Assembly (NCBI GenBank): GCA_043810775.1
Contig: JBDRNU010000026.1
Span: 1-64,000 of the forward strand
Origin: an archaeon
GTDB lineage: Archaea > Nanobdellota > Nanobdellia > Pacearchaeales > GW2011-AR1
Length of the DNA stretch: 64,000 bases
Direction: 5' to 3'
The translations under genes and the position numbers were made by a program. The notes under the pieces are model-generated. The model saw nothing but the letters and a program-made list of their open reading frames with translations. It was not told the DNA's origin and did no database searches. Positions 1 to 46,745 of the stretch are shown in pieces. Numbering within the stretch: the first letter of the stretch is position 1; each line of letters starts with the position of its first letter.

Positions 1-5
1 ATTTG

Positions 6-57
6 GGAGATTTATGTCTTGCACTAAGCAAGTGGGCGTAAGCCCAAATAAATCACC
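6..57 (+). other. Small three-way-junction structure at the window edge, possibly part of a preceding structured unit
   Basis: ggagatttat (6-15) pairs with ataaatcacc (48-57) with one mismatch, enclosing hairpins cttgc-actaa-gcaag and tgggc-gtaa-gccca. Confidence 0.6.
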
Positions 58-220
58 TGTAAACGTATGTTGAAAGACCTGAACGAAGTGAAGGCACGAG
101 TGCGAACTAAGAGCCTCGTGAGTGGAAATTTCGTTCTCGCCCATGTGAGTTGCGTAGTTTTTTGAAGAAGCGAAGGATATATAATCCCTCGCTCTTTCAT
201 TACTTTGGGAGGTAATGAAT

Positions 221-367
221 ATGAGTTTTAGTATAGGGGGATTGTCAGCTTCAGCAGTATCAGTATTAGTTGCTTTTTTTATGATTGCTACTGAACACAT
301 CTTCTGGGGAATAAGTTTTATTTTTTTAGCAATCATTTTAGCATTTATATCTACAGAAAAGAACTAA
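221..367 (+). CDS. 48-aa hydrophobic peptide MSFSIGGLSASAVSVLVAFFMIATEHIFWGISFIFLAIILAFISTEKN, likely 2 TM segments
   Basis: Not in the ORF track. SD GGAGGT at 208-213, ATG 221, TAA 365-367; TATA-like gatatataa at 176-184. Confidence 0.65.
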   Translation: MSFSIGGLSASAVSVLVAFFMIATEHIFWGISFIFLAIILAFISTEKN

Positions 368-494
368 GCAACCAAGCTGACAATCCTAAAAGGATTGTGA
401 TAATATAAAGAGCGATGGCTACTTCATTGCTAACTCTATCTCGCTTCTGAAAAAAATTTAATTTAACTTTAGTTATGTGATGTCTTGATTTCAT
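351..494 (-). CDS. 47-aa peptide MKSRHHITKVKLNFFQKRDRVSNEVAIALYIITILLGLSAWLLSSFL, basic N-terminus plus C-terminal TM
   Basis: Not in the ORF track. SD AGGAGA (complement of 502-507) 7 nt upstream of the ATG; TAG at 353-351; convergent with and overlapping 221-367. Confidence 0.6.
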   Translation of the reverse strand: MKSRHHITKVKLNFFQKRDRVSNEVAIALYIITILLGLSAWLLSSFL

Positions 495-656
495 ATTCGT
501 ATCTCCTTTTGTGAAGTTAAGTTGAGCAATTCACTTCTTAGGCGAGAATTACCGACAGCCGAAAGGTGTGGGAAAGGGGAAGCTAAAGCTCTGTGCCTAA
601 AACTAGGGTTCAGTCGGTAACATTTATGCGAAATTTTCATTTTTTTCAACATCGGG

Positions 657-686
657 GATATATAACTTATTTAGAATTTATATATC
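657..686. promoter_or_regulatory. 9-bp inverted repeat between the folded element and the recombinase gene; candidate recombinase or regulator site
   Basis: gatatataa (657-665), 12-nt spacer, ttatatatc (678-686). Confidence 0.4.
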
Positions 687-738
687 AAATTTAGAATATA
701 TAGTAACCTTTATATACTATTAAAGTAATTTTAATTTT

Positions 739-1551
739 ATGAACAATAAAGAGGACTGCCTTAAAAAATTAGAAGAAAACCTTAAATTAAGAAACTATTC
801 AAAAGAAACCCAAAAAGTCTATATTATACATATAAAAAAATACTTTGAATTTCTTGAAAATGAATCTCCTTGCTATGAAAATGCCAAAGAATACATTCTG
901 AAAAAGCTAGAAACTAATGAGCCCTCATCAGTCCACCACACTATTTTCGCAGTAGAATATTTCTTCAAAAACATTTTAAAAGAGAGTATTTATATTCCAA
1001 AGCCAAAAAGAAGCAAAAAAATACCTGAAATCCTCACTCAAGAAGAAATTAAAAGCATGATTCAATCTACAAGAAATATAAAGCACAAATTAATACTAAA
1101 AATCCTTTATGGTTGCGGGTTAAGGGTTTCTGAAGTAGTAAATTTAAAAAATGAAAATGTAAGCATTAAAGAAAGTTTAATCCATATTAAGCAAGGAAAA
1201 GGGAAAAAAGACAGGTTTGTAAAAATTCCTGGTTCAATAAATGAAGAGCTTAATGCATATCTCAAGCTTAACAACGACGAGTTTTTATTCCCATCAACAA
1301 GAGGAGGAAAGCTGACTAAAAAAACAATTTCAAAAATAGTTGAAACTTCAGCAAAAAAAGCAAAGATTAAAAAAAGAGTTTACCCACACTTATTAAGACA
1401 CTCCTTTGCCACTCATTTGCTCGAGCAAGGAGTAGATTTAAAAATAATACAGAAGTTATTAGGTCATTCTGACATAAAAACAACACAGATTTACACCCAA
1501 ATTTCACAAGCATCAATTAAAAATATAAAATCTCCATTAGACAATTTATAA
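739..1551 (+). CDS. Tyrosine recombinase (XerA/XerD or integron-integrase-like, N-terminal SAM-like domain)
   Basis: Catalytic motifs GLRVSE, GKGKK, HLLRH, LGHS, TQIY; N-terminus LKLRNYSKETQKVY; no obvious IntI-specific insertion. Confidence 0.95.
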   Translation: MNNKEDCLKKLEENLKLRNYSKETQKVYIIHIKKYFEFLENESPCYENAKEYILKKLETNEPSSVHHTIFAVEYFFKNILKESIYIPKPKRSKKIPEILTQEEIKSMIQSTRNIKHKLILKILYGCGLRVSEVVNLKNENVSIKESLIHIKQGKGKKDRFVKIPGSINEELNAYLKLNNDEFLFPSTRGGKLTKKTISKIVETSAKKAKIKKRVYPHLLRHSFATHLLEQGVDLKIIQKLLGHSDIKTTQIYTQISQASIKNIKSPLDNL

Positions 1552-1554
1552 AAA

Positions 1555-3765
1555 ATGCCAAGAAAAAGAAAAATAGCAGAAGATATGAAAGAGCCAGACT
1601 ATATACCTATGAGTCCATCAAACTTAAAGCACACTACTGAAATTACAGTCAAACATATTGACAAAAAAGCTCTTCTAACAGTGGAAAAGCAGGGAAAAAA
1701 GCCAAAGCAGGAAAAATACACACTAATAATAACAGAAAAACCACAGGCAGCTGAAAAAATAGCCCATGCACTTGGAAATCCACTAAAAATTTCAAATAAA
1801 GACAGAACAAATTATTTTGAGTTAAACAAAAACGGAAAGAAAATACTAATTACAGCCGCAGTAGGTCATCTTCTCAATCTAGAGCAGAAAAAAGGTGAAA
1901 AAGGCTGGCCAATATTCAAACTAGAATGGGTTCCAGGATATAAGAAGAAAAAAGCAGAATTCAGCAAAAAATATTACTCTCTAATAAGTAAATTATGTAA
2001 AGATGCTTCTGAATTTGTCGTAGCTACAGACTATGATGTAGAAGGGGAGGTAATTGGATTGAATATAATTAGATACATATGCAAGCAGAAAGATGCTCAA
2101 AGAATGAAATTCTCAAGCCTGACTAAAGAAGAAATTCAAAAAGCCTTCCAGAACTTACAGCCTACACTAAACTGGGGGCAGGCAATAGCCGGAGAAACTC
2201 GGCACTATCTTGACTGGCTTTACGGCATAAATCTTTCTCGTGCCCTAATGGACGCTATTAAAACAACAGGCAGTTTCAGGATAATGTCAATTGGCAGAGT
2301 TCAGGGTCCAGCCCTACATCTAATTGTTGACCGCGAGCTGAAAATCCAGAACTTCAAGCCACAAGCTTACTGGCAGGTCTATATCTCGATCTTACCAGGA
2401 AAAATAGAGCTAAAATATAATAAAGACATAACTAAAAAAGAAGAGCTTGATGAGTTCTTAAAACTAAAAGGTAAAAAAGCTCAAGCAGAAACAAAAACTT
2501 CTGATCAGGTTATAACTCCTCCAGTGCCTTTTGATTTAACAACTTTGCAAACAGAATCCTATAAATTCTTTGGAATAACTCCCTCAAAAACCTTGCAAAT
2601 CGCGCAATCATTATATCTGGCAGGTTTAATATCCTACCCAAGAACATCTAGCCAGAAAATACCAGAAGCAATTTCTCCAAGAACTATAATCAACAAGCTA
2701 TCTAAAAACTATAAAGAAGCTTCTCTATGCTCTCGAACTAAACCAATAGAAGGCAAAAAATCAGACCCTGCACACCCATCAATCTATCCAACTGGCGAGC
2801 AAGCTTCCCTAGCTGGCGAGCAAAAAAAAGTTTATGATTTAATAGTAAGAAGATTTCTTGCAGTTTTCTGTGAAGATGCAATAGTTGAAAACAAATCAAT
2901 AAGCGTAACTATAGATAATCATAAATTTTATACTAGAGGCCAGATAGTAAAGAAAAAAGGTTGGATGCAGGTGTATCAAGCCAGTATAAAAGAAAACAAG
3001 CTCCCAGATATAAATGGGGAAGTAAAAATAGATAAGGTAAGAATAGAAGAAAAAGAAACCCAGCCTCCAAAGCGCTATTCACAAGCTTCACTTATTTCAG
3101 AGCTTGAAAAGCATAACCTAGGAACCAAAGCAACTCGGGCTTCAATAATTGAGACTCTGTATGACAGGCAGTATATAAGAGAACTTTCAATTCAGGCAAC
3201 TCCTCTGGGAATGTCCCTGATTTCAACCATGAAAAAAAATGTTCCAATAATAATTGAAGAAGAGCTTACAAGGCATTTTGAAAAAGAAATGGAAATAATA
3301 CGAACAGCAAAAAAGAATCTAAATGAAAAACAAAAGCAAATCTTGCAAGAAGCTGAAAAAACTCTTACTAAAATATCTCACGATTTCAAGAAAAAAGAAA
3401 AAGCAATAGGCAAAGACTTGGTAAAGGCAACAAGCCACCTAATTAAAGACATGAAAGAACAAAACACTCTTGTCCTATGCCCTGTATGCAAAAAAGGGCA
3501 CCTTGCAATTACTTTCTCAAAGAAAACAAAGCGCCACTTTATAGCTTGTAATGCTTATCCTGAATGCAAAACCACATTTTCTCTTCCACCAGGAGGGCTG
3601 GTTAAAAAAACAGATAAAGTCTGTGACAAATGCGGATTTCCTCTCCTAATAAGGCTGATGAAAGGCAGGCGTCCCTGGATATTCTGCTTTAATCCTAATT
3701 GCGAAACTAATAAAGAGTGGCAGAAAAAGCGTGAAGAATATATGAAGAATCATAAAACTAGCTGA
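1555..3765 (+). CDS. topA: DNA topoisomerase IA
   Basis: TOPRIM motifs TEKP and ATDYDVEGE, GRVQ, catalytic ISYPRT, C-terminal Zn ribbons. Confidence 0.97.
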   Translation: MPRKRKIAEDMKEPDYIPMSPSNLKHTTEITVKHIDKKALLTVEKQGKKPKQEKYTLIITEKPQAAEKIAHALGNPLKISNKDRTNYFELNKNGKKILITAAVGHLLNLEQKKGEKGWPIFKLEWVPGYKKKKAEFSKKYYSLISKLCKDASEFVVATDYDVEGEVIGLNIIRYICKQKDAQRMKFSSLTKEEIQKAFQNLQPTLNWGQAIAGETRHYLDWLYGINLSRALMDAIKTTGSFRIMSIGRVQGPALHLIVDRELKIQNFKPQAYWQVYISILPGKIELKYNKDITKKEELDEFLKLKGKKAQAETKTSDQVITPPVPFDLTTLQTESYKFFGITPSKTLQIAQSLYLAGLISYPRTSSQKIPEAISPRTIINKLSKNYKEASLCSRTKPIEGKKSDPAHPSIYPTGEQASLAGEQKKVYDLIVRRFLAVFCEDAIVENKSISVTIDNHKFYTRGQIVKKKGWMQVYQASIKENKLPDINGEVKIDKVRIEEKETQPPKRYSQASLISELEKHNLGTKATRASIIETLYDRQYIRELSIQATPLGMSLISTMKKNVPIIIEEELTRHFEKEMEIIRTAKKNLNEKQKQILQEAEKTLTKISHDFKKKEKAIGKDLVKATSHLIKDMKEQNTLVLCPVCKKGHLAITFSKKTKRHFIACNAYPECKTTFSLPPGGLVKKTDKVCDKCGFPLLIRLMKGRRPWIFCFNPNCETNKEWQKKREEYMKNHKTS

Positions 3766-4525
3766 CACTTTTACACAAATATCTACTATGGGAATCAGGA
3801 ATTTTTCTTGCATTTTCTTCATGCTTCACCAAGTCATATTTTGAAAAATCTATGAACCCTCCTCTAATGAAAAAATCAAGCTGCCCATCTTCAATATGGG
3901 AATAATGCATAAATTTTCTCCAAGCTCGAGATATACCCGTATCATTTGAGATAATGCAAGTTTTCCCGCGTGTATTTGCAAGAACAGCTCCAGAAATTAA
4001 AACATCTATATCAGCCTCGCTTAGTTTAAATTTTTCCGGCAAATAAAAGTAAGCCTGATGATATCTATTATACATTCCTCTCTCTTTAAGTGATAAATCA
4101 AGTATTTTATTATAGGTCTGAATTGATTCTACAAGACCTCTCCTGCCTTTGCTTTCCACTTTTCTTGCCCTTGCTTCACATAATTCAGCGCCAGGGTATT
4201 CAAATTGCCCCATCTGCCTTAAAAACTTCTTGATATGAAAATAAAGTTTATGGGAAAATTCATCAAGTACTTTTTGAGTAACAAGAATATTCTCACCCTG
4301 AACAATAAGAGCTTCAAGATATTTATAAAATTGAACAGCAGAATTTAATTTTCTTGCGCTTTTATAAAAATCCTCCTCTTCAAAAAGTCTTCTCTCTCTT
4401 TCATTTTTCCCCATAGGGCAAATTAAAGCTGAAGTATCAAACAAGCACAAGCTATAATCTTGCACTAACTCATCTAAGGCTGTTTTTTCTGATTCACTTG
4501 CTGAATCCAATAAACTAACTGACAC
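3758..4525 (-). CDS. Hypothetical protein, PIN-domain-like
   Basis: FDTSAL, VLDE, LSEADID and IISND acidic motifs resemble the PIN fold; flanked by a 15-bp direct repeat. Confidence 0.55.
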   Translation of the reverse strand: MSVSLLDSASESEKTALDELVQDYSLCLFDTSALICPMGKNERERRLFEEEDFYKSARKLNSAVQFYKYLEALIVQGENILVTQKVLDEFSHKLYFHIKKFLRQMGQFEYPGAELCEARARKVESKGRRGLVESIQTYNKILDLSLKERGMYNRYHQAYFYLPEKFKLSEADIDVLISGAVLANTRGKTCIISNDTGISRAWRKFMHYSHIEDGQLDFFIRGGFIDFSKYDLVKHEENARKIPDSHSRYLCKSVS

Positions 4526-5245
4526 TCATATCCACCTCCTCTTTTTGATTCCAGAACCAGTAATATAAAAATTAAGCTCCTTTTCTGCCATGCTCCTGTG
4601 CTTCTTAAGTATAGCTTTCCTGTTTTTTCCTTCCTGCTTTAGCTCAATTATACACTTGCTCCAGTATTTTAGCAAGTCTCCTCCAACCATTCTTGCTTCA
4701 GGCTTCTTGCCAGCTCTAAAATCTTCATCAGATAAAAACTCAGAATAAGTCTGATTAGTAGCAATAATTGGAATTAGCTTATTTCTTGATATTTCAGCTA
4801 AAGTTCTCAGCTGTCTTGCTAGCTGAGAATTTATCTCCTTAACTTTCATCTCATCTTCCTTGCAATTAGCCAGTTCCAGCCTGTATAGCATAGTCATGCC
4901 ATCTACAACTATCAACCCAACACCCTTAATTTCTTTTAGCATTTTCTCAAATGCTTTTTCCTGCTCATCAAAAGTCACTGGCTTTAGCAATAAGATATTT
5001 TTCAGGGCTTTTTCATACTCTTCCCCAGTTACTTGCTTAAACCTGTCAAGCGAAAATCCTCCCTCACTATCGATAAAAATAACCTTCTTATCTTTTTTAG
5101 CCATGCTGCTGGCAGCTAGAACACAAAAATTAGTTTTCCCAGAGCCAGCTGGCCCATAAATAGTAGTTATAATGTCCTTTTCATATCCGCCATAAAGCCA
5201 CTTATTCAAGTCAAAACTTCCAGCTGAAATCCTGTCAGTTCTCAT
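4526..5245 (-). CDS. radB: DNA repair and recombination protein RadB
   Basis: Short RecA-fold ATPase: GPAGSGKT, IDSEGG, TNQ, KHRS basic patch. Confidence 0.93.
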   Translation of the reverse strand: MRTDRISAGSFDLNKWLYGGYEKDIITTIYGPAGSGKTNFCVLAASSMAKKDKKVIFIDSEGGFSLDRFKQVTGEEYEKALKNILLLKPVTFDEQEKAFEKMLKEIKGVGLIVVDGMTMLYRLELANCKEDEMKVKEINSQLARQLRTLAEISRNKLIPIIATNQTYSEFLSDEDFRAGKKPEARMVGGDLLKYWSKCIIELKQEGKNRKAILKKHRSMAEKELNFYITGSGIKKRRWI

Positions 5246-5403
5246 TTTTCCTCCCTAAATCCTGGAAAAATGAGGGCTCGAAAATTTTAATTTTCGTTGT
5301 TCTCATAATTAGTTAAGTATTGGCCTACTTATATTAATTTGTATACTAAAAATAAATTAATTAAATAATAACATTTAAAAACTCCTTAAAACCAGTCAAA
5401 GAT

Positions 5404-5760
5404 ATGGAAAAAATCTTATTAGTTGAGGATGATATAGCCTTAGCTGAACAAATGAAAAGATTTTTAGAAGAAACTCGGAAATGCCGAGTTAATATAACTC
5501 TTACACTAGATGAAGCATTGAAAAATGCGCACCAAAATTATGATTTGCTGATTACAGATAAAAATCTCGGAGGCCATAGAGGAATACACCCCCTTTTAGA
5601 TTATATGAAAGAAGAAAAGCCATATACCCCTGTTCTTCTTGCTTCTGGTGAAGAGGGTATTCAGGCAAGAAGAGAGCTCTACTGCCATGATTTTTGGGAT
5701 AAAGATGATATAGATGAGTTTTTAGGAAAAGTCGACAAATTGCTATCCAAAGCTGCGTGA
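5404..5760 (+). CDS. Stand-alone CheY-like receiver domain
   Basis: ILLVEDD, phosphoacceptor LLITD, conserved S and K. Confidence 0.85.
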   Translation: MEKILLVEDDIALAEQMKRFLEETRKCRVNITLTLDEALKNAHQNYDLLITDKNLGGHRGIHPLLDYMKEEKPYTPVLLASGEEGIQARRELYCHDFWDKDDIDEFLGKVDKLLSKAA

Positions 5761-5873
5761 AAATTTTAGAATGATTTTCCCTTAAATTCTGGCTCTTCCA
5801 AGCTATAATGCTTGACTTTTTTATTTTTTCCTTATTCTCCTTACTTAAATATTTTCCCTTTCAATAACTGCGC

Positions 5874-6428
5874 CTATTTCTCACCTTCTTCTTCGCTAAA
5901 AATCTGTGCCTGAAATCTATAAAGCTTAAATTTCTCTTTCTGCCAGCTGTCTTTAGGCAAGCAGGCTTTCTGGCATAAAACTTCTAAAAACTGAATTCTA
6001 TCCATATTATTTTCACTAGCTACCTGAGGCAATAGCAAGCCAGAATATCCTAAATACTCACACATTAAGCCGTCTTTTCCAACCTCAACTTCACTAGCAC
6101 TGCACTTTACTGGCATTGTCAAAACAGAAACCTCAATCTTAATTTCATCTAGCTCACTCTCCTTTACACTGGAAAATCTTGGGTCAGAAAAAGCAGCTGA
6201 TTTCGCAGCCTCAACTATAGCTTCACAAACAGCCTTAGTAGGATAAGGCAATCCAATGCATCCCCTCAGCTTTTCATTTTTATGCAAAGTAACAAATACC
6301 CCTCTAGCCTGTCTAAATTTAGCTCCTTTGGGAAGCTCAATTTTTTCACCTGAAAACTTGCTTTTTATAGACTCTCTAGCAAGTTTCACAAACTCCTTGC
6401 CATCTTCCCCAATATATTCCCCTAGCAT
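5874..6428 (-). CDS. AMMECR1 domain protein
   Basis: GVFVTL, LRGCIG, DPRF, EVSVLT, GLLLPQV motifs. Confidence 0.93.
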   Translation of the reverse strand: MLGEYIGEDGKEFVKLARESIKSKFSGEKIELPKGAKFRQARGVFVTLHKNEKLRGCIGLPYPTKAVCEAIVEAAKSAAFSDPRFSSVKESELDEIKIEVSVLTMPVKCSASEVEVGKDGLMCEYLGYSGLLLPQVASENNMDRIQFLEVLCQKACLPKDSWQKEKFKLYRFQAQIFSEEEGEK

Positions 6429-6464
6429 AACAAGTATTATATACTAAAGTTTAATAATCTTCTT

Positions 6465-6833
6465 ATGAATGAGAGGGATCCACTAGCCACCGCCTTAGAA
6501 CTGTTATCAAAGCTAAATGAAAATTATGACCCATTAGTTGCTAAAGAGCTGAAAAATCTTATTGAATCGCCTGGAAAAGGACCTTTAAAAATTCTATATA
6601 GTAAGAAATTATATATAATTATGAACAAAAATGTTTCTGAACTAATTAAAAAAATGGAAGAAGCTTTAAGAACAGGTGAAGGCTATCTAACTGAAGAAGA
6701 AAAGCTAAAAATTACAAAGTCTATGTCACTAGATGCTCAGCTAAAAGAAGATTACTTAGGAAGATATGCGCATCTTATAAGAATTACTCCATCATCAGAA
6801 AAACCTACAGAAATAGCCTATGACACAATTTAA
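6465..6833 (+). CDS. Hypothetical protein (ORFan)
   Basis: 122-aa ORF with upstream TATA-like sequence; no recognised motif. Confidence 0.6.
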   Translation: MNERDPLATALELLSKLNENYDPLVAKELKNLIESPGKGPLKILYSKKLYIIMNKNVSELIKKMEEALRTGEGYLTEEEKLKITKSMSLDAQLKEDYLGRYAHLIRITPSSEKPTEIAYDTI

Positions 6834-6845
6834 ACAACACGCTGA

Positions 6846-7103
6846 TTATTTTTTTAAGCCGGCTACCAGCTTATCAGTATCTTTTTCTATTTCAGAAACT
6901 GCATCCTGAATAGCTTTTTTAGGAGTCTTGTTTTTAGTCTTTATTTTTAAAATAGGGTTTTTAGTAGGGTGCTCTCTTTTCCAAGCTGCAAAACTAACAC
7001 TCTCATCTTTATTTAAATACACTCTTAAAAGTTCAACTATAGTCATATTGCTAATTTCAATTTCAGCTTCAGTCTTATCTTCTTTTAAATATTTAATTTC
7101 CAT
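6846..7103 (-). CDS. rpoL: RNA polymerase subunit L (Rpo11)
   Basis: V.FAAWKREHP motif and size; start moved to MEIKYL at 7103. Confidence 0.85.
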   Translation of the reverse strand: MEIKYLKEDKTEAEIEISNMTIVELLRVYLNKDESVSFAAWKREHPTKNPILKIKTKNKTPKKAIQDAVSEIEKDTDKLVAGLKK

Positions 7104-7126
7104 ATTAATACTCTGAAAAATTAGTT

Positions 7127-7267
7127 TATAAAGCTTATTGTAGCTGAACATTAACTAACTCTATGCAGGGAGTTAATTCAGTGGGCTAATATCTCTGATT
7201 TAGTCCCGCTCTTTGGCAACCTTTGGAAAAGGTTGACTATAAAGCTTATTGTAGCTGAACATTAACT
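7127..7267. repeat. Dispersed hairpin element copy A between perfect 30-bp direct repeats
   Basis: tataaagcttattgtagctgaacattaact at 7127-7156 and 7238-7267; internal sequence homologous to 9973-10068 and 46394-46543. Confidence 0.9.
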
Positions 7268-7268
7268 T

Positions 7269-8021
7269 TTAATCATCCAAGAACTCAATCTGCCCTACCT
7301 CCTCCCCACCCTCCAGCTCAATCTCGCTACTCTCTTCATCTTTAAATTCAGGAATTTCTTCAATTTCAGCTTTTTGCCTCTCCAGTTTCATTCTCTGCAA
7401 GTCTGCGATAGTAATTGTTTTCAGCGAGTTATTATCAAAATTTAAAACCCTCGCAGGTTTTCTAACTGCTTCAATTCTTTCCTGCTCTTTTTGAAACTCT
7501 TTTTTCCTTAAGAATATACCAAAATACTGCTCTAACTTATTTATAATTCTGTCACCATCTCCTGGCAAGTCTCCGCTTTCAATCATTTTCACTGCCTCTT
7601 CTGACTCACCTAAAGCATCACTTACTTGTTTTAAAGTCAGGTGCTTTTTTCTTCTCGCTGCCTGAATATGCCAGTGGAAATTATCCACAAGATATAAAGG
7701 CTTATTTCTAGCTATACTCTGTTGCCTTTTAATTTCAAAACTAGGCTTATCATAATTCTTAGCCTTAGTCAGCTTGTCTAAAGTAAGTTTAACCTTATCC
7801 TCTGTCTTACTGGCCGGAAGCCCAGCCATTCTGCTAAGTCTCTGATAAACAGTATAAGGCTTATCAGTCTCCCTTAACTGATAAGAAGTAGGTTTCCTGA
7901 TAATAGGAATTTCTTCAACTAGCGCACACTCTTCACAAATCCTAACTATCTCATCGCCATCAATTGCATCAAGAAGTCTGACTTCTTCTTCATCCCTTAG
8001 GCATCTGAAACACTGTTCCAT
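7269..8021 (-). CDS. Zn-ribbon plus HTH protein, archaeal MBF1-like
   Basis: CFRC...CEEC Zn ribbon, Cro/C1-type HTH (ARRKKHLT..VS..LGES..AVKMIESG); start moved to MEQCFRC. Confidence 0.75.
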   Translation of the reverse strand: MEQCFRCLRDEEEVRLLDAIDGDEIVRICEECALVEEIPIIRKPTSYQLRETDKPYTVYQRLSRMAGLPASKTEDKVKLTLDKLTKAKNYDKPSFEIKRQQSIARNKPLYLVDNFHWHIQAARRKKHLTLKQVSDALGESEEAVKMIESGDLPGDGDRIINKLEQYFGIFLRKKEFQKEQERIEAVRKPARVLNFDNNSLKTITIADLQRMKLERQKAEIEEIPEFKDEESSEIELEGGEEVGQIEFLDD

Positions 8022-46543: not shown

Positions 46544-46544
46544 A

Positions 46545-46632
46545 TGAGCCTGCACGGATTTGAACCGTGGACCCCTGCCTGTCTGAGTTTACATATCAGA
46601 GCAGTGCTCTAACCTGGCTGAGCTACAGGCTC
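46545..46632 (-). tRNA. tRNA-Ile(GAU) with a 13-nt intron at 37/38
   Basis: GAGCCTG/CAGGCTC acceptor stem; CTGCT-CTGATA[TGTAAACTCAGAC]A-GGCAG; intron TCAG pairs with CTGA (BHB-type helix). Confidence 0.9.
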
Positions 46633-46745
46633 ATAAGTCTGTAGAAAGCATAAACTCTCAAACTACTACAGGCTCATAAAGAAACAACTTTTCTACCATT
46701 TAAAATACTTACGATTATAGAAAAGTAAAAAAATAAAAGAAAAAG

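Follow-up and report, generated by a model that had tools for sequence, protein, structure and literature searches.

The 5' end of contig G000:C26 raises the question of what kind of element is formed by a long folded stretch that lies directly upstream of a tyrosine recombinase gene. The window analysed here is the first 64 kb of this contig, from genome G000 (approximately 1 Mb in 26 contigs, 80% complete). A sequence-only reading of the window had proposed an integron-like cassette that carries its cargo inside one closed fold. Our comparative analysis identified window positions 1-652 as one unit of a conserved folded-cassette family in metagenome-assembled genomes of Pace-, Woese- and Nanoarchaeota. 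We put the probability at about 0.5 that this unit is the recombinase-proximal, and perhaps the only, cassette of an integron-like gene-capture locus in Pacearchaeota-type DPANN archaea, which works via folded single strands. A cassette consists of a leader, a structured 5' module (a three-way junction together with strands of the helices P0 and P1), a cargo loop and a 3' domain ending in AACAT. Cassettes have a conserved ...AACAT on one side and, on the other, a palindrome which begins about 84 nt 5' of the gene for a dedicated XerA-like paralog. The features of the window are summarized in Table 1.

A BLAST search of 301 genomes of the same order detected true homologs in seven others, and these covered only window positions 1-185 and 540-660, not the interior. 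A degenerate 25-nucleotide (nt) pattern was used to search GTDB genome contigs, metagenome contigs and viral contigs. The GTDB contigs gave 23 stretches, 14 of which matched the hidden Markov model (HMM) of the 5' domain, and all of these 14 are labelled as Pacearchaeota, Woesearchaeota, Nanoarchaeota or just 'archaeon'; the metagenome contigs gave 42 stretches with 32 clear HMM matches, and the viral contigs gave none with the two patterns searched. When six duplicates were dropped, 21 unique complete units of 649-1098 nt were obtained. The conserved stretch runs from window position 1 to about 652, and its 3' part opens directly behind the stop codon of the cargo ORF. Searched with a covariance model of the 5' module, 36 of 151 family genomes (one genome per genus of the family) were positive, with 55 matches and one to four per genome. 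A match to a known structural RNA, which had been named in advance as a result that would speak against the proposal, was not found: no Rfam 15 family reached E<=1 in window positions 1-8000, and seven homologous loci gave two chance-level matches. The RNase P RNA, SRP RNA and 23S (LSU) rRNA of genome G000 are on contigs other than that of the window. No description of the cassette system was found in the literature searched, including passages of PMC9668308, PMC8371274 and PMC8138268; the attC and IntI tables of PMC9668308 might list some of the contigs.

The multibranched fold proposed for the window is real in the sense that it exceeds shuffled sequences on both strands and with both parameter sets. 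For positions 1-700 and RNA parameters, the + strand reached -205.2 kcal/mol, where shuffled sequences averaged -165.3 (z = -5.5; none of 20 shuffles equalled it) and the - strand reached -169.0 kcal/mol (z = -9.1); with DNA parameters the values were -98.2 (z = -6.4) and -91.5 kcal/mol (z = -6.1) for the + and - strands, respectively. A consensus structure of 64 pairs was derived with RNAalifold from the conserved columns of the 21-unit alignment. In this structure 98.7% of the cells pair, compared with 31-51% when the 3' partners were slid by one to three columns, and 27 of the 64 pairs show compensatory change; the observed values were reached by none of 500 shuffles. The 1339 cells of the consensus structure include 153 G.T and only 11 A.C combinations, so only the + strand forms it, as the wobble pairs of the window had led the sequence-only reading to propose.

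The covarying helices build a framework of about 385 nt that encloses one cargo gene. Besides P1, four long-range helices span the cargo (P2, 124-133/629-640; 133-142/540-549; 145-153/526-534; and 157-162/452-457, which closes the cargo loop). P1 forms a run of 9-10 base pairs in 20 of 22 units and takes four compensatory forms (GCTTG/CAAGC; GCCC/GGGC; GAAAG/TTTTC, which is the form of the window; and CCCAG/TGGG). P2 also has four compensatory variants among the units, as counted on unaligned sequences, and hairpin 18-22/28-32 of the 5' module shows compensatory changes at all five pairs. Most of the stems drawn earlier from the window alone correspond to these helices: stem 64-77/642-654 does so with a conserved core of 68-77/642-651, and 95-120, 121-133/629-641, 134-141/541-548, 145-153/526-534, 460-471/512-523 and 549-556/613-620 all have covarying counterparts. 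Only the outer part of stem 156-173/441-458 is conserved (157-162/452-457), and stem 189-197/407-415 is not retained, as it falls in the non-conserved cargo region.

The cargo differs in every unit. One clear + strand open reading frame (ORF) of 50-215 amino acids, starting 204-242 nt into the unit, is present in 19 of 21 units, and the cargo ORF is ambiguous in L082 and L111. No blastp relation at E<=0.01 was found among the 21 cargo proteins, which bears out the view of a variable cargo inside a conserved closing structure, and a Pfam family was assigned to two of 18 tested proteins (GNAT in L038, polysaccharide deacetylase in L114). A TATA-like octamer, often with GAAAG in front of it, is positioned 24-40 nt 5' of the cargo ATG in 17 of 21 units. 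From this motif we infer that the units have an internal archaeal promoter which would give leaderless or short-leader mRNAs.

One unit dispenses with cargo. The unit of about 410 nt at L125 (G318:C52, 62-495) has no ORF, and its cargo loop is a GAAG tetraloop; it shows that the element has its core in the fold itself. This unit lies between a platform left flank and a palindrome, the recombinase encoded downstream is 69% identical to that of the window, and its P1 helix shows a fourth compensatory variant, TGTTCCC/GGGAACA. The cargo loop of the window unit also contains, on the - strand, a 47-amino-acid ORF with a hydrophobic tail (351-494), which is convergent to the 50-amino-acid cargo ORF and overlaps its end; it could be a chance ORF or a small antisense gene.

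The ends of the cassette are brought together by P0 and P1. In P0, a leader that starts 1-4 nt past the cassette junction pairs with the segment immediately 5' of the P1 strand, and more than ten covarying leader/partner variants were observed; this helix had escaped the sequence-only reading. Cognate leader and partner are complementary by Watson-Crick pairs at 9/9 positions in 19 of 35 cases and at 8/9 or more in 26 of 35, compared with 2.5% and 15%, respectively, of 882 non-cognate combinations. Seven listed units, including L040, L046, L093 and L094, have a leader mismatched to its partner. The leader was also considered as a mere TATA box and rejected as such, since it is separated from the 5' module by a variable distance (13 to about 110 nt) and changes in concert with the segment it pairs with. 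The cassette 3' end (...CAACA-T) and the 5' leader adjoin on one continuous complementary internal strand, and the junction forms a bulge of 2-4 nt; the resulting pseudo-duplex is reminiscent of a folded attC or of the attP(+) of CTXphi. With P1 and P0 paired side by side on this strand, both cassette ends meet, and the earlier idea that folding unites the ends thus holds for the family.

The positions of those ends had to be revised. The crossover had been sought at the AAC triplets 62-64 and 664-666; comparisons of empty and occupied sites and a strain polymorphism, described below, place the junction at or within AACAT 648-652 instead. Likewise, the left boundary is not in the window. The P0 5' strand lies beyond the contig start, so the window unit is truncated by at least about 28 nt, and the three-way junction at 6-57, correctly recognized before as a structure and taken there for a separate unit, is therefore part of the window unit.

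Units occur in arrays, as had been suspected, with two to four AACAT + leader junctions per locus at a spacing of 0.2-2 kb. What comes next downstream of the 21 units is a 12-6-12 palindrome in eight cases, the leader of the next cassette in 11, and other sequence in two, both of which have a truncated AACAT. For the eight units followed by a palindrome, a recombinase gene is visible in seven and the contig ends in one. Palindromes of like layout and differing sequence start 78-86 nt 5' of the recombinase ATG in 10 loci, and the window palindrome is a candidate platform site, attI- or dif-like. Its interpretation as a piece of a longer dyad together with AACAT failed across loci and was rejected.

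Pairs of empty and occupied sites define the insertion point. L040 and L049 have about 88 nt in common up to ...GACATAACAT, after which L040 continues with the palindrome and the recombinase gene and L049 with a cassette; L060 and L104 (and L125) share GGAATTACAGATAACA and then split in the same manner. In addition, L038 and L116 are 99.96% identical over 2504 nt, including the cassette and the recombinase gene, and the identity ends exactly at AACAT, upstream of which one has another cassette and the other the platform left flank. L038 and L116 represent near-identical strains, one of which has gained or lost a single cassette. Contig ends are the location of many units and recombinase genes, and this would be expected of arrays that are repeated or polymorphic.

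A further pair of contigs (L052 1692 and L119 137) is 100% identical over 550 nt with a breakpoint inside the P1 5' strand (...AACAT|TGCTTGACC and ...GCTGT|TGCTTGACC), which hints that recombination is also possible at the TGTT side of P1. Some array cassettes have other frameworks with the common 5' module, and at least three framework types exist. Cassettes of other frameworks are closed by a second conserved 3' end (...TGTGCGAAGCAC...GGGGCGGGTGGTCGGGGG..., followed some 70 nt later by ...AACAT); it was seen at L040 4215-4330 and L049 5130-5245, and upstream of units in L046, L055, L047 and L108. Another framework is exemplified by a cassette of 2.3 kb in L040, which has two ORFs on the - strand. 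The 5' modules at L110 1560-1856 and L111 1426-1721 are 94% identical and their cargo and 3' end types differ, which suggests exchange inside frameworks besides movement of whole cassettes. At L091 (about 430-600, - strand) a unit starts 4 nt past an apparent tRNA 3' end (T-arm, acceptor end, TCGT, leader), and this putative tRNA-adjacent unit would mean that insertion can also take place at secondary sites, remote from a recombinase platform. L092, an entire contig of 1065 nt read on the - strand, contains a unit without leader and three-way junction, the 3' domain of which is cut after GAGAAT and runs into a recombinase gene at its middle (query residues 166-242); it is a rearranged or decayed locus. 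Among public reads, no RNA run was listed as a carrier; Logan contigs from four DNA runs were low-depth fragments, one of which spans 574-868 as assembled, and they gave no junction information.

The recombinase of the window belongs to the XerA type. It passes the XerA equivalog model NF040815 (227 bits, cut-off 220), its best match among solved structures is the XerA of Pyrococcus abyssi (PDB 4a8e; 1.2e-49, full length), and the catalytic R, K, HxxR, H and Y motifs are legible in its sequence. The integron integrase model TIGR02249 aligns in two stretches (8-178 and a second one) with 197 bits, below its cut-off of 265, and the alignment with IntI4 (PDB 2a3v) is likewise split in two, in agreement with the earlier remark that the enzyme lacks the IntI-specific insertion. 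In a tree of 28 recombinases from loci chosen for the platform question, the window enzyme falls in a clade of nine (support 100/99), every member of which has the AACAT-palindrome platform, and two further clades are linked to platforms. A separate clade of eight (94/91) is without platform; its members are G000:C6 and a single copy from each of seven further sampled genomes. On this tree, the platform label requires three changes, compared with 9.4 when shuffled, and none of 500 shuffles was as low. The 55 matches to the 5' module are a less biased sample, and for 11 of them a recombinase gene follows on the same contig and strand at a distance of up to 7.2 kb (compared by eye). The proposed tie between the cassette and its neighbouring tyrosine recombinase is thus upheld by the platform-linked clades and by the position of the gene downstream of the platform.

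A second XerA-like gene of genome G000 (G000:C6:11754-12566; L079 3255-4070) encodes 271 amino acids, is 42% identical to that of the window and has no cassette, AACAT or palindrome upstream. Its clade is the better candidate for the housekeeping XerA because it has one copy per sampled genome and no platform; judging from sequence, the gene is likely to be the housekeeping XerA and distinct from the window paralog.

Several observations bear on which molecule folds. Both GNA and GNRA loops, as reported previously, are present. Mini-hairpins of the c(GNA)g type (GCGAAGC, CCGAAGG, GCGGAGC and GCGTAGC in the family) occur at a mean of 2.95 per unit compared with 0.56 in shuffles; the window unit itself has none under a strict criterion of a stem of at least 3 base pairs. 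According to PMC13037366, such hairpins are extraordinarily stable as DNA and much less so as RNA, and they mark priming sites on single-stranded DNA (ssDNA) and are weakly bound by SSB. The internal promoter-like element means that the mRNA would start past the 5' module, which counts for ssDNA, and P0 starting at the DNA junction, with no conserved promoter upstream, may be taken in the same sense. Neither a reverse transcriptase nor a Y1 transposase was found in genome G000 (80% complete).

A possible mechanism can be formulated from these elements. In both contexts AACAT lies directly 5' of a helix (P0 for the cassette; for the platform, the palindrome in its hairpin form), and AACAT is therefore proposed as the core or overlap sequence. 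The upstream flanks all end in AACA, which is able to pair with the TGTT that opens the P1 strand. The recombinase would recognize AACAT next to a helix and cleave it on the folded + strand of ssDNA; with the two ends meeting at the P0/P1 interface, the exchange of one strand between them would excise a single-stranded circle, and the reverse reaction would insert such a circle at the platform. The c(GNA)g mini-hairpins may stabilize the ssDNA fold or prime second-strand synthesis, and the remaining framework might serve second-strand priming, stabilization of the mRNA 3' end, or both. Taken further, and held tentatively at somewhat less than even odds, Pacearchaeota-type DPANN would carry a second, independently evolved kind of integron, in which a XerA-derived recombinase captures and releases self-folding ssDNA cassettes; folding of the entire backbone would splint the two ends of a cassette, so that a single strand swap without a Holliday junction could excise it, and each cassette would have its own promoter and possibly its own priming hairpins.

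A number of points weigh against the reading of window 1-652 as a folded-single-strand cassette. The covariation of some long-range helices comes mainly from the window's own lineage, and about 250 nt of conserved framework beyond P0 and P1 would be superfluous for a recombination site. The G.U-type wobbles are frequent (11% of cells) and invariant, which is more typical of RNA, and with DNA parameters the two strands are about equally stable. About 44 of the 55 copies of the 5' module are not near a recombinase gene or are at contig ends; in a two-contig genome, the module at G112:C1:91739 is 280 kb from the recombinase gene. A XerA-like gene was not found at E<=1e-20 in six of the 36 unit-bearing genomes, all six being incomplete assemblies. 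The insertion point is at the outer edge of the palindrome and not in its spacer, and Xer-type enzymes cleave duplex sites at the spacer. Since palindromes vary between genomes and cassette ends are shared, recognition of the cassette would have to depend on structure. Finally, catalysis by the recombinase and the ssDNA or circle state are proposals drawn from sequence.

It is conceivable, if rather unlikely in our judgement, that the fold acts in RNA, where the P0/P1 clamp and the 5' and 3' domains would stabilize, process (by a cut at AACAT) or regulate the cargo mRNA. Transcription would then occur from the cassette alone or by read-through of the array, and movement would proceed by duplex DNA or by homologous exchange of frameworks, with the recombinase needing only the AACAT core. 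The folding strand is indeed the cargo-sense strand, with a clear + strand ORF in 19 of 21 units, and it is the more stable one with RNA parameters (-205 vs -169 kcal/mol); many of the 153 G.U-type wobbles are invariant, GNRA loops are present, the 3' domain opens directly past the stop codon, and L110/L111, with 94%-identical 5' modules but differing cargo and 3' domains, fit an exchange of frameworks. However, with a TATA-like box at a distance of 24-40 nt from the ATG, as in 17 of 21 units, the mRNA would start past the 5' module, so the P0/P1 clamp would be impossible in it. Moreover, the P0 5' strand begins 1-4 nt past the DNA junction with no conserved promoter upstream of first cassettes, the c(GNA)g triloops are motifs of the DNA type, no Rfam family matches at E<=1, and L125 has an ORF-less unit at the platform. 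Other RNA-based and related classes (group I and II introns, circular RNA processed at bulge-helix-bulge motifs, tmRNA-like RNA, OMEGA or bridge RNAs, and retrons) were rejected, as no motifs or partner genes were found, the genome has no detected reverse transcriptase, and the ends pair with the splint and not with each other.

Movement by other enzymes has also to be weighed. IS200/IS605 elements insert without target duplication, their left flank ends in the right-end pentamer, their cleavage sites base-pair to an internal guide, and they need folded ssDNA. The cassette pattern resembles this family pattern, so the units could be non-autonomous elements which a HUH Y1 transposase acting in trans inserts 3' of AACAT by a hairpin, the platform being a favoured target. 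Of the 151 family genomes 47 have Y1_Tnp, as do 16 of the 36 with units, and there are copies away from recombinase genes, one directly past the putative tRNA gene at L091. We nevertheless regard this as improbable: Y1_Tnp was not found in 20 of the 36 unit-bearing genomes, including G000 and G015 (the latter listed as 100% complete), none of the units examined has a Y1 gene next to it, the platform goes with three recombinase clades at a fixed 78-86 nt from the ATG, and tandem head-to-tail arrays ending at a platform are unusual for IS200/IS605. Y1 transposase genes in family genomes reach 11 matches per genome, many of them at contig ends. It is also very improbable that the palindrome is the chromosomal dif and the enzyme the housekeeping XerA, with the cassettes as hitch-hikers on Xer/dif like CTXphi, TLC and pdif modules (integrative mobile elements exploiting Xer recombination, IMEX). 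The enzyme passes the XerA equivalog with P. abyssi XerA as its best structural relative by sequence, the palindrome is dif-like (12-6-12) and unique in the genome, and the recombinase gene is joined in an operon-like manner to the only topA. Against these points, the XerA-like clade that includes G000:C6, with a single copy in each sampled genome and no platform, makes the better candidate for the housekeeping enzyme, insertion is outside the palindrome spacer with no dif-like half sites flanking the cassettes, and the palindrome sequence varies between genomes although the cassette ends are constant.

Compared with known systems, the logic of the proposed system appears closest to integrons and the geometry of its site, by analogy, to the attP(+) of CTXphi. 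Like integrons, it has a tyrosine recombinase gene beside a sequence-specific platform site, head-to-tail arrays of mostly single-gene and mostly ORFan cassettes, sites which are conserved in structure and not in sequence and fold on one strand, and an AAC triplet at the crossover. The folded site is mostly at the cassette start on the folding strand, with the outermost arm contributed by the cassette before it, from its end; the strand that folds is also the recombinase gene's sense strand; and there are copies away from the recombinase, comparable to clusters of attC sites lacking integron-integrases (CALINs). As in integron arrays at attI, the arrays end at AACAT and the palindrome, 78-86 nt before the recombinase ATG. 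Unlike integrons, the window enzyme is XerA-like without the IntI-specific additional domain (patch III), the folded site comprises a three-way junction of about 100-150 nt inside P0 and P1 as well as some 250 nt of further framework with pairing across the cargo, the cargo has the same sense as the folding strand and its own promoter-like element (17 of 21 units) instead of Pc, and the platform is a 12-6-12 palindrome with insertion at its outer edge. The attC sites are imperfect hairpins of about 57-141 nt (R''-L''...L'-R') which contain extrahelical bases and fold on the bottom strand, whereas the sites here are much larger and on the cargo-sense strand with an analogous topology (P1, bulge and P0 around a three-way junction); no attC model was run.

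CTXphi attP(+) shares a Xer-family enzyme, arms which are apart in the duplex and united in the folded single strand with an imperfect centre, and complementary arms inside the element after insertion. It differs in that the elements here are single-gene cassettes of 0.4-1.1 kb and not phages, and the likely enzyme is a dedicated paralog and not the housekeeping Xer; unlike in CTXphi and IMEX in general, the junction is 0-4 nt outside the left arm, not within the central region, and the palindrome remains intact on one side only. IS200/IS605 elements and palindrome-associated transposable elements are alike in their strand-specific folded ends, insertion 3' of a pentanucleotide without target duplication and internal guide pairing, and unlike in that here no Y1 transposase is associated, the arrays are at a tyrosine-recombinase platform and the whole element is one closed fold. 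The pdif modules of Acinetobacter plasmids are small gene modules thought to be moved by Xer at duplex XerC/XerD sites in inverted orientation; no duplex half-sites were seen at the cassette borders here.

To our knowledge, integrons are the only platform that stockpiles single-gene cassettes via recombination of folded single strands, and they do so with one enzyme lineage (IntI). The present system would amount to structure-specific cassette capture by a tyrosine recombinase, and the self-splinted single-strand mechanism, if confirmed, would border on a new class. If true, the strategy of folded-single-strand cassettes has evolved more than once, here in a non-IntI system with another site architecture, and offers ultra-small, host-dependent archaea a route to rapid gene turnover. 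It would also explain the frequent assembly breaks at these loci and provide a compact, self-synapsing recombination substrate as a possible tool.

Table 1. Positions of the features of the cassette unit, the platform and the adjoining genes in the window
Feature	Position	Strand	Remarks
Three-way junction of the 5' module	1-58	+	Helices 5-7/56-58 and 9-15/48-54; hairpins 18-22/28-32 and 33-37/42-46; minimum free energy fold
Helix P0, 3' strand, CTGTAAACG	57-65	+	Partner in relatives: leader starting 1-4 nt past the junction
Helix P1, 5' strand, TGTTGAAAGA	68-77	+	Partner 642-651
Two local hairpins at the four-way junction	78-120 (78-94, 95-120)	+	95-100/115-120 covaries (AU to UA, AU to GC)
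5' strands of long-range helices	121-162	+	P2 (124-133), 133-142, 145-153, 157-162
BRE/TATA-like element, CGAAGG ATATATAA	171-184	+	In the cargo loop, 38 nt 5' of the cargo ATG
Cargo ORF, 50-amino-acid hydrophobic peptide	215-367	+	No Pfam family; GGAGG upstream
Conserved 3' domain	441-641	+	Local helices 458-469/513-525, 550-556/613-619, 559-560/607-608, 621-622/627-628
3' domain, 3' strands of long-range helices	452-457, 526-534, 540-549, 629-640	+	From alignments, pair counts and mapping to the window
P1 3' strand and conserved end AACAT	642-652 (P1 642-651; AACAT 648-652)	+	Junction at or inside the pentamer
12-6-12 palindrome, GATATATAACTT ATTTAG AATTTATATATC	657-686		Unique in genome G000
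XerA-like tyrosine recombinase, 270 amino acids	739-1551	+	Without IntI insertion
Archaeal type IA topoisomerase topA	1555-3765	+	TIGR01057, 649.7 bits; 4 nt past the recombinase gene

The topA gene is the only one detected in genome G000, and the order of recombinase gene and topA is kept in L038, L040 and L043. The location of a single-strand-specific topoisomerase in an operon with a candidate ssDNA recombinase may be more than coincidence. Far from the cassette, ARAGORN predicted a 90-nt tRNA without assigned identity and with a 2-base 'anticodon' on the - strand at 46544-46633, which may be an intron-containing or split archaeal tRNA.

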